Source of the DNA: Escherichia coli
Lineage (GTDB): Bacteria > Pseudomonadota > Gammaproteobacteria > Enterobacterales > Enterobacteriaceae
Assembly (NCBI RefSeq): GCF_024223415.1
Contig: NZ_CP100500.1
DNA length: 64,000 nucleotides
Direction: 5' to 3' (one strand)
Both the position numbers and the translations under genes were made by a program. This document shows positions 25,816 to 44,200 of this stretch, piece by piece. The notes under the pieces were generated by a model that saw nothing but the letters and a program-made list of their open reading frames with translations, was not told the origin of the DNA and did not search any database. The first letter of the stretch is position 1. Every line of letters starts with the position of its first letter.

Positions 25816-25908
25816 GGTGAGGTGGCCGAGAGGCTGAAGGCGCTCCCCTGCTAAGGGAGTATGCGGTCAAAAGCTGCATCCGGGGTTCGAATCCCCGCCT
25901 CACCGCCA
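25816..25908 (+). tRNA. serV: tRNA-Ser (anticodon GCU)
   Basis: 93-nt cloverleaf with long variable arm; acceptor GGTGAGG/CCTCACC; anticodon loop ctGCTaa; genomic CCA. Confidence 0.95.
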
Positions 25909-25911
25909 TTT

Positions 25912-25988
25912 GCATCCGTAGCTCAGCTGGATAGAGTACTCGGCTACGAACCGAGCGGTCGGAGGTTCGAATCCTCCCGGATGCACCA
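25912..25988 (+). tRNA. argV: tRNA-Arg (anticodon ACG), copy 1
   Basis: 77 nt gcatccgtagctcagctggatagagtactcggctACGaaccgag...ggatgcacca. Confidence 0.95.
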
Positions 25989-26123
25989 TATTCTCCGTAA
26001 CCTTCAGCGATGAAGGTATGGAAGAGGTGGCGGTACTAACCGCAGGCACCAGGGAGGATAACGTTGCTTTAGCAACGGCCCGAAGGGCGAGCCGCAAGGC
26101 GAGTAATCCTCCCGGATGCACCA
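25989..26123 (+). repeat. structured 135-nt inter-tRNA element ending in a 19-nt tRNA-Arg 3-prime remnant
   Basis: Several short hairpins (ccttcagcgatgaagg, cgttgctttagcaacg); terminal aatcctcccggatgcacca at 26105-26123 matches the tRNA-Arg T-arm/acceptor 3-prime end; near-identical copy at 26404-26536. Confidence 0.8.
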
Positions 26124-26187
26124 TCTCTTACTTGATACAGCTTTAGTAGCGGTATCAAAAAATCTGCAGTAAAGTAAGTTTCCCGAT

Positions 26188-26264
26188 GCATCCGTAGCTC
26201 AGCTGGATAGAGTACTCGGCTACGAACCGAGCGGTCGGAGGTTCGAATCCTCCCGGATGCACCA
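26188..26264 (+). tRNA. tRNA-Arg (anticodon ACG), copy 2
   Basis: 77 nt, identical to copy 1. Confidence 0.95.
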
Positions 26265-26326
26265 TCTCTTACTTGATATGGCTTTAGTAGCGATATCAAT
26301 ATCAGCAGTAAAATAAATTTCCCAAT

Positions 26327-26403
26327 GCATCCGTAGCTCAGCTGGATAGAGTACTCGGCTACGAACCGAGCGGTCGGAGGTTCGAATCCTCCCGGATGCA
26401 CCA
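26327..26403 (+). tRNA. tRNA-Arg (anticodon ACG), copy 3
   Basis: 77 nt, identical to copy 1; only 62-nt spacer from copy 2. Confidence 0.95.
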
Positions 26404-29312: not shown

Positions 29313-29385
29313 AAAAAGGCCACTCGTGAGTGGCCAAAATTTCATCTCTGAATTCAGGGATGATGATAACAAATGCGCGTCTTTC
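29313..29385 (-). ncRNA. micA: MicA (SraD) small RNA
   Basis: Reverse complement reads gaaagacgcgcatttgttatcatcatccctgaattcagagatgaaattttggccactcacgagtggccttttt, with terminator hairpin ggccactcacgagtggcc plus U-run. Confidence 0.95.
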
Positions 29386-35978: not shown

Positions 35979-36060
<82 letters not shown>

Positions 36061-39733: not shown

Positions 39734-40702
<969 letters not shown>

Positions 40703-42847
40703 TTAAAGTGCACAGGAGACGCAGCCTTCAATTTCAGTGCCTTCCAGCGCCATCTGACGCAGGCGGATGTAATAGAGCGTTTTGATACCTTTGCGCCAGG
40801 CGTAAATCTGCGCTTTGTTGATATCGCGAGTGGTGGCGGTATCGGGGAAAAACAGCGTCAGCGAAAGCCCCTGATCGACATGGCGAGTCGCTTCCGCGTA
40901 GGTGTCGATGATCTTTTCTGCGCCGATTTCGTAAGCGTCCTGATATAGCGCCAGATTTTCGTTAGTCATAAACGGGGCAGGGTAGTAAACGCGCCCTGTT
41001 TTGCCCTCTTTGCGTATCTCTACTTTCGCCACAATCGGATGAATACTCGACGTAGCATGGTTGATATAAGAGATAGAACCGGTTGGCGGCACCGCCTGAA
41101 GATTCTGGTTGTAAATGCCGTAGCGCATCACGTCGTCGCGCAGCTGCGCCCACATCTCACGGGTAGGTAACGTAATACCGCTACGGGCAAACAGTTCGCC
41201 AACTTTCGCCGTTTTCGGCTGCCAGTTCCCTTGCAGATATTGGCTAAAATATTCACCACTGGCATAGCGTGACTGTTTGAACCCGGCGAAGGTTTCACCG
41301 CGTTCGCGTGCCAGCAACATCGAGGTACGCAGTGCGTGCCAGGTGATGGCATAGAAATAGAGATTGGTGAAATCCAGTGCTTCCGGCGAACCATAAGCGA
41401 TGCCTTCTCGCGCCAGATAGCCGTGTAAATTCATCTGCCCCAGTCCGATGGCGTGCGAGGCGGCATTTCCGGCTTCGATGGACGGCACGCTGCGGATATG
41501 ACTCATATCTGATACTGCCGTTAAACCGCGCACGGCAGTCTCTACCGTGCGGGCAAAATCGGGGGAATCCATGGTGTGCGCAATATTCAACGAACCTAAA
41601 TTGCAGGAGATATCATGGCCTGTGCGGGCATAGTCGAGATTCTCGTCATACTCTGAGGCGCTGTTAACCTGCAAAATTTCTGAGCAGAGATTACTCATAT
41701 TTATGCGCCCGGCGACAGGGTTAGCACGGTTTACCGTGTCTTCATACATGATGTACGGATAGCCAGACTCAAACTGGATTTCTGCCAGTCGCTGGAAGAA
41801 ATCACGGGCGTTGAGGTATTTTTTGCGAATGCGTTCATCGGCAACCAGTTCGTCATAGTGTTGGCTGATGGCCACATCGGCAAACGGCTTGCCATAAACT
41901 CGCTCTACGTCATAAGGCGAAAACAGCGCCATCTGCGCATTCTCTTTTGCCAGATGGAAAGTGATATCCGGGATCACCACGCCCAGCGACAGTGTTTTAA
42001 TGCGGATTTTTTCGTCGGCATTTTCCCGTTTCGTGTCGAGAAAACGCAGAATATCGGGATGATGAGCATGTAAATAGACTGCACCAGCCCCCTGACGAGC
42101 GCCGAGTTGGTTGGCATAGGAAAATGCGTCTTCCAGCATTTTCATCACCGGAATTACGCCAGAAGATTGATTTTCAATACGTTTAATTGGCGCGCCCGCT
42201 TCTCGCAGATTCGACAGCAAAAATGCCACGCCGCCGCCGCGTTTCGACAGTTGTAGTGCGGAATTTACCGCCCGGCCAATCGACTCCATATTGTCTTCAA
42301 TACGCAGCAGAAAACAGGAAACCAGTTCGCCGCGCTGCTGCTTACCGCAGTTGAGGAATGTCGGCGTGGCTGGCTGAAAGCGTCCTGACAGCATCTCATC
42401 AGTGAGCTGCGTCGCCAGTGTTTCATCGCCTTGTGCCAGCGTCAGCGCCACCATCGTGACTCGATCGGCAAAATCTTCCAGATAACGTTTACCGTCGAAT
42501 GTCTTCAACGTATAGCTGGTGTAAAACTTCCATGCCCCGAGGAATGTCTGGAAACGAAAACCGCTGGTGTGTGCGTGGGCAAACAGCGTAATGACAAAGT
42601 CGCGAGGGTAGCGATTAAGAACGCTTTCATCATAGTAACCTTCGTTGACCAGCCAGTTCAGGCGCTGCTGCTGGCTACTGAAGGTCACACTGTTCGGACG
42701 CACATGCGTCGCAATAAAGGCGTCAACGGCCTGGCGGTCTTTATCGAACTGAATGCGACCTGCGCTATCGTAGAGGTTAAGCATCGCATTCAGCGCGTGA
42801 TAATCCATCGTTTCCTGCGTCAGGCGTTCTGCGGTTGTCGTTGCCAA
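40703..42847 (-). CDS. nrdE: class Ib ribonucleotide reductase alpha subunit NrdE
   Basis: 714 aa; C-terminal CVSC motif. Confidence 0.95.
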
Positions 42848-43230
42848 AATTCGGTTACTCCTTTACGAACGTTTTCGATATCGCTTTGCGTACCCATGAG
42901 TTCAAAACGGTACAGCCACGGCACGCCGCATTTCCGGGCAATCACATCTCCGGCGCGGCCATACGCCTCACCAAAGTTGCGATTACCCGAAGCAATAACG
43001 CCGCGAAGCAACGCCCGGTTGTGCTCGTCGTTTAAAAAGCGAATTACCTGTCGTGGCACCGCGCCAGCCGTACCGCCGCCGCCGTAAGAGGGCACGATCA
43101 GGATGTAAGGCTCGTCTACCTGAATCCGTTCCCGCTCATTGAGCGGGATGCGCACCGCGGGCAGACCTAAACGTTCGATAAAACGCTGCGTGTTTTCGGA
43201 GCTGCTGGAGAAGTAGACGAGCTGGCTCAT
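42820..43230 (-). CDS. nrdI: flavodoxin-like NrdI
   Basis: 136 aa; 28-nt overlap with nrdE start. Confidence 0.93.
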
Positions 43231-43472
43231 GCACTGGCCGCGTGTGGCGCTGGATGCAGACGGTTAATCATGTCCGGACGGAAACCAGACCAGCTAAGAT
43301 CGCCAGCAATCACTACCGGCAACTGACGAAAGCCCTGAGCACGCAACGCTTCTGCCGCTTCAGGAACGCGATCGACATTAATCATTTCAAAATCAAAGCC
43401 CTGGTTTTCCATCGCCCGTTTGGTGGCGTGGCACTGAACGCAATCGTTACGAGTGTAAATAGTAATGCGCAT
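43227..43472 (-). CDS. nrdH: glutaredoxin-like NrdH
   Basis: 81 aa; CVQC redox motif. Confidence 0.93.
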
Positions 43473-43658
43473 GATTCGTATTTCCGTTTAAAATGAAGAT
43501 ACGGCGCGATGATACGCGTCGGGTTGTCTCTCTGTTGATACAGAGATACTAGATGTAGTTGAAAAAAAATTCAACCACACAAGATATAGCAAATAGTGGT
43601 CGAAAGTACCCTGGGTATGAGCGTGACGGGGTAGGGGGATTTTTGTGATTCACCAGGC

Positions 43659-43688
43659 AAAAAGAAACCCCGAAGACAGGCTTCGGGG
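43659..43688 (-). terminator. intrinsic terminator downstream of ygaM
   Basis: Minus-strand hairpin ccccgaag-cctgt-cttcgggg followed by TTTcTTTTT. Confidence 0.75.
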
Positions 43689-43719
43689 TCAAAGACGCGT
43701 ATTTATTATCATTTTTGCA

Positions 43720-44049
43720 CTACGATTTACGCATGCTCAACAACGCACCGATAAAAATACCTACCGCAGCAGCAGTTCCCACACTACACCAGGGTCTTTC
43801 ACGAACAAAAGAATCCGCGCAGCCAACGGCATCGCGTGCGGCTTGCTGGACGCGAGTACGACCATGCATTCGCGCCCTGGTTTCTTTCAGCAATGCCTGA
43901 GCTTTACTGCGTGCGGCTTCAGCTTCCCCTTTGGCGTCGCTGCCCCAGGACTTCAATACAGATTCGAGGCTGTCAGCTAATTGATTGACATCATTCTGGA
44001 TATCCTGCACGCCATCATCAACGTCGTTGCGGTTCGGTCGGTTAAACAT
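43720..44049 (-). CDS. ygaM: ElaB/YqjD-family ribosome-associated tail-anchored membrane protein YgaM
   Basis: ORF 43720..44061; start at MFNRPNRNDVDDGV gives 109 aa; C-terminal TM. Confidence 0.85.
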   Translation of the reverse strand: MFNRPNRNDVDDGVQDIQNDVNQLADSLESVLKSWGSDAKGEAEAARSKAQALLKETRARMHGRTRVQQAARDAVGCADSFVRERPWCSVGTAAAVGIFIGALLSMRKS

Positions 44050-44200
44050 ATGATCCCCCATTAGAATTCGATGTAATTTTCAGTGTAGACCATAATTTTC
44101 TTAACTGAGGTTCATCGCGGCTTTATGGACTTTTCTGAAAGCGTTGTGAATGCGCAATCAGGTAAGGTAGGCCCGCGGTTGATAATAACGAGGATCAAAT

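Follow-up and report, generated by a model that had tools for sequence, protein, structure and literature searches.

An inverted repeat upstream of nrdHIEF in Escherichia coli encloses box 1 of the documented NrdR operator

Background

The NrdR box is a 16-bp partial palindrome of the form acaCwAtATaTwGtgt, in which position 4 is C, position 13 is G and the centre is AT. Rodionov and Gelfand are said to have predicted an NrdR operator in the nrdHIEF promoter of E. coli K-12, and Torrents et al. reportedly described this operator, with its boxes 1 and 2, in 2007. NrdR boxes occur as tandem pairs with 15-16 bp between them, or 31-32 bp from centre to centre (PMC2892513, PMC12176259). E. coli NrdR binds a 57-bp fragment of the K-12 nrdHIEF promoter with a KD of 138 +/- 32 nM in the presence of ATP plus dATP, and the same fragment is not bound with ATP alone; DNA binding requires dATP plus ATP or ADP on NrdR (PMC12176259). 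In this fragment, box 1 is joined to box 2 by a 15-nt linker, each box is 16 nt long, and a flank of 5 nt is added at either end (PMC12176259). The corresponding sites of Salmonella Typhimurium are NrdR1 and NrdR2 (Panosa et al. 2010, PMC2892513). Of the two, box 1 dominates functionally at this nrdHIEF promoter, and its mutation raises nrdHIEF expression as far as deletion of nrdR does (PMC2892513).

Two other regulators act on the operon. nrdHIEF is a member of the core Fur regulon (PMC10164565, PMC4676285), and it is activated from a type II IscR site, with half-sites of the form CCxYA, whose right half embeds the -35 element (PMC8561392).

The present analysis concerns the nrdH upstream region in a 64-kb window, that is, the whole stretch of 64,000 nucleotides that was analysed. 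A first-pass annotation had noticed there an inverted repeat in an AT-rich context and had proposed that it could be the NrdR or the Fur site expected for the operon.

The nrdH locus and the inverted repeat

The window is part of an E. coli chromosome: 361 bases around the repeat have matches in 5,421 of 5,426 complete E. coli genomes, with identities of up to 99.7%, and the features annotated beneath these matches are ygaM and nrdH. Identity to the ygaM-nrdH region of E. coli genomes is 97-99.7%. The locus contains the following features.

43227-43472, minus strand: coding sequence of nrdH, the first gene of nrdHIEF, with its ATG at 43472
42820-43230, minus strand: nrdI (open reading frame and K-12 annotation)
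40703-42847, minus strand: nrdE (open reading frame and K-12 annotation)
39734-40693, minus strand: nrdF (open reading frame and K-12 annotation)
43720-44061, minus strand: ygaM open reading frame
43666-43690, minus strand: intrinsic terminator of ygaM (10-bp stem, then a T-run)
43574-43600, no strand assigned: inverted repeat ACCAC-N17-GTGGT, exact match

The repeat (ACCACACAAGATATAGCAAATAGTGGT) has a single exact match within the window, on the plus strand at 43574-43600, which places it 102-128 bp upstream of the nrdH start codon. The GC content is 31% over 43540-43600 compared to 51% window-wide. Both the repeat and its AT-rich context are therefore as first described.

The repeat as such carries no statistical weight. 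Its exact pattern is expected 0.04 times per window, a figure that applies to a pattern picked after the sequence had been viewed. The 168-bp interval 43473-43640 contains 10 perfect inverted repeats with 5-nt arms and loops of 3-30 nt, against 3.5 +/- 2.3 in shuffled versions, and 93% of the shuffles contain at least one. An Rfam scan of the whole window returned no match in the nrdH upstream region; thus, no known riboswitch or small RNA explains the repeat.

A pair of NrdR boxes

The functional element at this locus is very probably a pair of 16-bp NrdR boxes, with the repeat built around the first of them.

43577-43592, minus strand: NrdR box 1, TTGCTATATCTTGTGT in nrdH orientation, upstream of the -35 hexamer and abutting it
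43546-43561, minus strand: NrdR box 2, CAACTACATCTAGTAT, whose final six bases are the -10 hexamer
43562-43576: linker of 15 bp between the boxes, containing the -35 hexamer

Box 1, also written TTGCTATATcTTGTGT, lies entirely within the 27-bp repeat. Both boxes carry the C at position 4, the G at position 13 and the central AT. Their centres, at 43584.5 and 43553.5, are 31 bp apart (about three helical turns), which is the spacing of NrdR operators. The location also fits: the operator lies in front of a class Ib ribonucleotide reductase (RNR) operon, 74-120 bp upstream of the nrdH ATG, and the pair overlaps the inferred -10 and -35 hexamers.

The bound 57-mer (PMC12176259) maps to 43541-43597 on the minus strand with two mismatches (55/57 identical), so that the window shares with K-12 the locus, the 16 + 15 + 16 bp layout and the position relative to nrdH. 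The window differs from K-12 by C instead of A at 43583, position 10 of box 1, and by T instead of C at 43568 in the linker; both positions vary within the family, 43583 being C in 63, A in 47 and G in 7 of 117 species. Box 2 is identical to that of K-12. The NrdR operator of nrdHIEF is documented, textbook regulation and already known, and the identity of 55 of 57 positions to the bound K-12 fragment predicts that NrdR also binds the exact allele of the window.

A symmetric position weight matrix (PWM) for NrdR was trained on the four K-12 nrdAB and nrdDG boxes only, leaving out those of nrdHIEF. Box 2 scored 11.0 bits and box 1 7.6 bits, which places them fifth and thirteenth, respectively, among 63,985 positions. 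The C at 43583 lowers box 1 from the 12.0 bits of K-12 to this value in what is a small-sample matrix. Neither box is significant singly in 64 kb, shuffle maxima averaging 13.7 bits. Scored as a pair at 31 bp, they reach 18.6, the best value in the window; the runner-up scores 9.3, and the maximum of 200 shuffles is 18.1. The first-pass annotation had tied its proposal to a matrix hit in this interval, and the scan, once run, gave the box pair the top pair score of the 64 kb.

Conservation was assessed in other genomes. A degenerate pattern representing the NrdH motif CVQCHATK, run once against genome contigs, found 120 loci, nearly all from Enterobacteriaceae, and 117 distinct nrdH upstream regions, including that of the window, were aligned. 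The top-scoring NrdR pair was spaced by exactly 31 bp in all 117 sequences. In box 1, the core positions C43589, A43587-T43584 and T43582-G43580 are 97-100% conserved, and T43577 belongs to the set conserved at 93-100%. In box 2, positions 43560-43546 are 80-100% conserved, with AGTAT invariant and 43561 variable. Box cores, TGG-TTGAA and TAGTAT are 93-100% conserved overall; A43570 of the -35 hexamer itself is conserved at 80%. The Salmonella NrdR1/NrdR2 locus is orthologous, has the same spacing and aligns with the window column for column; the left half of box 1 reads TTCCCA in the aligned Salmonella loci and TTGCTA in the window.

The repeat itself does not behave as an NrdR palindrome in this alignment of 117 Enterobacteriaceae, since its dyad does not coincide with that of the box and its arms are not both conserved. 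The centre of the repeat is at 43587, 2.5 bp from the dyad of box 1 at 43584.5. All five arm positions are complementary in the row of the window only, and most rows retain one or two of the five. The left arm, ACCAC, lies outside box 1. Its family consensus is ATCtA, and the bases of the window at its five positions are shared by 76, 12, 75, 9 and 12% of species; conservation is thus lacking at three of them. On this lineage-specific sequence, constraint is not detectable in the 117-species alignment. In the right arm, GTGGT, only the initial GT (43578-43577) belongs to box 1, of which it forms the end; a conserved GG follows, and with the final T the -35 hexamer begins. These three elements account for the conservation of the arm. 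The 27-bp repeat is thus a fortuitous composite around NrdR box 1 and no unit of function. The proposal that the palindrome is an NrdR site was right as to the place, with box 1 nested in the repeat, and wrong as to the element and its limits, given the offset dyad and the excluded left arm. A palindrome picked by eye landed on a documented NrdR operator, whose boundaries are here corrected to two 16-bp boxes 31 bp apart.

Promoter and repression

The promoter elements assigned to nrdHIEF in the window are as follows.

43569-43574, minus strand: inferred -35 hexamer TTGAAT, inside the 15-bp linker and separated from TAGTAT by a 17-bp spacer
43546-43551, minus strand: inferred -10 hexamer TAGTAT, 100% conserved in 117 species
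43539-43540, minus strand: approximate transcription start, placed from the -10 position and the Salmonella numbering

TTGAAT-17-TAGTAT is the sole conserved hexamer pair. Within the -35 hexamer, TTGA is 93-100% conserved and TTGA(A) 80-100% among the 117 species. A strict promoter scan omits this pair, which has 8 of 12 consensus matches. The weak candidate picked by the scan, TCAACA-18-TATCAT (43538-43509), was rejected as the main promoter, its hexamers being poorly conserved compared to the invariant TTGAA and TAGTAT.

The Fur box of S. Typhimurium is reported at -309 (PMC2892513). With a start site 6-7 nt after TAGTAT, the end of the Fur-like 19-mer of S. enterica subsp. diarizonae falls at -310; this supports the start site, because the published Salmonella position is reproduced within about 1 nt. 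Some Salmonella lineages (for example, subsp. diarizonae, L030) have a carboxymuconolactone-decarboxylase-family gene upstream, unlike the window. In L030, the sequence matching the published -309 Fur box lies inside this decarboxylase-family gene, and it is not applicable to the window.

The layout suggests how repression would work. With the -35 hexamer in the linker and the -10 hexamer in box 2, NrdR on both boxes would cover the core promoter. NrdR carrying dATP plus ATP or ADP forms a tetramer that occupies both boxes and represses transcription, and NrdR carrying ATP only assembles into higher, non-binding oligomers, leaving nrdHIEF derepressed. Repression would then proceed by promoter occlusion.

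Three further palindromic sequences were observed near the promoter. A GC palindrome or hairpin, CGACGCG-TATCAT-CGCGCCG, lies at 43502-43521 in the inferred 5' UTR; its stem is 70-88% conserved and its loop is variable. The alignment contains almost no compensatory change in this candidate hairpin, and no structure is claimed for it. An imperfect inverted repeat, GTCTCTCTGT/ACAGAGATAC at 43526-43549, spans the inferred start site and is poorly conserved, and another, TGTAGTTGAA/TTCAACCACA at 43554-43579, pairs the -35 region with the left half of box 2.

A putative IscR site

Part of the conserved right arm lies beyond NrdR box 1 and may belong to the IscR site. Type II sites have half-sites CCxYA and TRxGG about 7 bp apart, the right one embedding the -35 element.

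43569-43595, minus strand: IscR type II activator site, approximate span, in a register deduced from sequence

G43576 and G43575 are 95-99% conserved, yet they belong to neither the NrdR box nor the -35 hexamer. An IscR half-site would explain their conservation, and this GG within the right arm possibly represents the right-hand half of the type II activator site. The conserved sequence TGTGG at 43579-43575 (T43579-R-x-G43576-G43575) fits TRxGG and is the putative right half-site; it is positioned directly upstream of the -35 hexamer, as in IscR-activated promoters. The departure from such sites is in the left half, a degenerate one in this lineage: TGCTA, without the CC, is found in the window and K-12 where the family consensus has TCCYA.

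It is a serious, if tentative, possibility that the conservation of the right arm reflects an IscR type II site and not NrdR, with apo-IscR at about 43569-43595 recruiting RNA polymerase to the weak -35 hexamer. The match to TRxGG and the conserved GG favour such a site; the left half lacking CC in the window and K-12, and a register deduced from the bases themselves, count against it. An IscR site would in any case be compatible with the NrdR assignment, not exclusive of it, and the NrdR box pair remains the preferred reading of the locus.

Fur

A second proposal was that the repeat is a Fur operator, at which iron-loaded Fur dimers bound to the AT-rich palindrome would repress nrdHIEF. The membership of nrdHIEF in the core Fur regulon speaks for it, as does an 11/19 match to the Fur 19-mer consensus at 43583-43601; however, matches of this quality arise about once per 160 bp of the window. 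The repeat itself is dissimilar to the 19-bp Fur consensus (GATAATGATAATCATTATC; hexamer arrays), although the operon, like those with known Fur boxes, is Fur-repressed and carries a weak array of two matches over the nrdH ATG. A published scan by Chen et al. assigned nrdHIEF only a 10.1-bit Fur site and no cluster (PMC2189734).

As counting consensus matches was too crude, a Fur PWM was built from 11 K-12 Fur-regulated intergenic regions. A region meant as fhuF (L130) was excluded from training, being the wrong locus through shifted gene labels in the K-12 ChIP-exo sheet. The peak labelled acnA in the ChIP-exo data is presumably near tonB. In the K-12 sheet of PMC10164565 supplement 3, which uses NC_000913.2 numbering, labels are shifted relative to coordinates in places, and the peak labelled fhuF maps to lgoR. 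Real sites received leave-one-out scores of 7-19 bits. No score of at least 2 bits was found anywhere in 43574-43600, so that the repeat does not qualify as a Fur box. Within the interval 43473-43640, the best matches lie over the ATG with an offset of 6 nt, one scoring 7.6 bits (43467-43485) and the other 6.5 bits (43461-43479). Among 113 species, the best match in -400 to +40 is centred at -4 to +5 in 106, with scores of 7.6-12.2 bits.

The reproducible peaks of published ChIP-exo data lie at the same place. Three regions of MG1655 fall in the window: P87 at 43590-43624, P88 at 43445-43474 and P89 at 43456-43464 (PMC10164565 supplement 3). The two Fur features discussed here are listed below.

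43445-43485, no strand assigned: Fur-associated element over the nrdH start codon (PWM matches, ChIP-exo peaks, conservation)
43590-43624, no strand assigned: Fur ChIP-exo region P87 of MG1655, overlapping the repeat by 11 bp at its left arm

Seven other strains checked each have one 13-bp peak, labelled intragenic for nrdH (PMC10164565 supplement 3). The peak of ATCC 8739 maps to 43456-43468 of the window, and the mapped nrdH peaks of W3110 and ATCC 8739 are just inside the gene.

The overlap of P87 with the left arm is the remaining point in favour of a Fur operator at the repeat. The P87 region contains no Fur PWM match of at least 2 bits, and it is absent from the single nrdH peaks of the seven other strains. 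Nine classic Fur promoters served as calibration: each has one peak at 0-25 bp from its strongest motif, and additional satellite peaks lacking a motif are common at 110-275 bp. P87 is most likely such a satellite peak, because it is about 140 bp from P88 and P89 and has no motif. Moreover, O157 and CFT073-like strains lack the left-arm segment, and their nrdH is still under Fur control. A Fur operator at the repeat is therefore extremely improbable, and this part of the original proposal is unsupported, with the evidence for Fur centring on the nrdH start codon. Fur PWM matches, ChIP-exo peaks and cross-species conservation indicate that the Fur element of nrdHIEF is most likely the one overlapping this codon. 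The Fur site of nrdHIEF should be looked for there and not in the AT-rich promoter.

The 20 nt preceding the nrdH ATG (43473-43492, AAACGGAAATACGAATC...) are about 100% identical in 117 species, far beyond what a Shine-Dalgarno sequence needs. This invariant stretch coincides with the weak Fur-like array and with the ChIP-exo peaks at the start codon.

The best Fur-like intergenic 19-mer, AAAAATGATAATAAATACG at 43698-43716 (13/19 matches, 13.3 bits), lies between the ygaM stop codon and the terminator. It was rejected as a functional Fur site: its score equals the mean of shuffle maxima, it has no K-12 ChIP-exo peak, and among 113 sequences a match of at least 8 bits near -235 occurs only in the window's own, so that the site is not conserved.

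Window-wide, the strongest Fur PWM matches are at 56150-56168 and 58159-58191 (17.3, 16.3 and 15.2 bits). The top single match to the NrdR PWM is also in this AT-rich ygaQ/ypjC/tRNA-Ile region, and the K-12 ChIP-exo table contains a Fur region labelled 'ygaQ intergenic' (PMC10164565 supplement 3).

Variation upstream of box 1

Apart from the invariant 20 nt that precede the start codon, the analysis had two other mildly useful by-products: a conserved hairpin that lies upstream of box 1, and a promoter-proximal polymorphism within E. coli whose boundary falls midway through this box. The polymorphism affects the following segment.

43588-43625, minus strand: K-12-type-specific segment of 38 bp, which holds the left arm of the repeat and the left half of box 1

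A total of 1,389 of the 5,421 matching complete E. coli genomes (about 26%), Nissle and O157:H7 among them, lose their similarity to the window at 43587, the centre of box 1. Upstream of 43587, the window reads ...TTTCGACCACTATTTGCTATA, compared to ...AATCAATCTAAAATTCCCATA in Nissle and O157:H7, which is the family consensus; likewise, Nissle and O157:H7 read ...AATCAATCTAAAATTCCCATAT... where the window and K-12 read ...TTTCGACCACTATTTGCTATAT... Strains of the Nissle/O157:H7 type have two extra genes between ygaM and nrdH (L133 and L134 1555-3408), which encode a PLP-dependent aminotransferase-family (MocR-like) protein and a carboxymuconolactone decarboxylase-family protein. Across 108 loci, the neighbour of nrdH is the decarboxylase-family gene in 57 and ygaM in 48.

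The K-12-type segment was seen only in the window, in K-12 and in Escherichia sp. MOD1-EC7003, where the arm is ACCAT. Given this restriction, the ACCAC arm is a recent, lineage-specific sequence. The 38-bp replacement created that arm, turned TTCCCA into TTGCTA in the left halves of both box 1 and the putative IscR site, and degraded a hairpin conserved in the family.

The replacement could also have brought in, as the 27-bp repeat, an operator confined to this lineage and bound by some other dimeric regulator. In both the window and K-12 the two arms pair without a mismatch, the left-arm segment is a discrete variant present in about 74% of complete E. coli genomes, and MOD1-EC7003 has the same segment with one arm mismatch. 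Against this, arms of five bases are expected by chance, this relative already has ACCAT, the repeat matches no known motif, and its right arm is fully accounted for by other conserved elements. Such an operator is highly improbable. It is very unlikely, too, that the K-12-type replacement of 43588-43625 rewired the control of nrdHIEF in roughly three-quarters of E. coli and left the repeat as a lineage-specific operator footprint. If it had, the consequences might be, for example, an altered affinity for NrdR or IscR, or a new protein contact marked by the MG1655-only region P87. The preferred reading is still a fortuitous composite around NrdR box 1.

Across Enterobacteriaceae, a GC-rich hairpin with differing stem sequences (for example, CCCCGCCG/CGGCGGGG, CCCCGTCG/CGACGGGG and CCCTCGCCGG/CCGGTGAGGG) recurs at about 17-40 nt upstream of box 1, and the window retains a degraded copy at 43607-43633. 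RNAalifold returned no consensus structure for the 117-sequence upstream alignment, the hairpin being supported by explicit pair counting only, and no U-run follows the stem. Over columns 72-79 and 87-94 (alignment A2), 61.7% of cells are paired, against 26-46% in slid controls; the covariation score of 0.24 compares with 0.04-0.13 for the controls. The G-U pairs fit the nrdH-sense strand.

Other features of the window

Elsewhere in the window, Rfam matches at gathering score were obtained for the following RNAs.

29314-29385, minus strand: MicA small RNA
35983-36060, minus strand: naRNA4/CssrE
25816-26400: cluster of four tRNAs
58356-58428: one further tRNA
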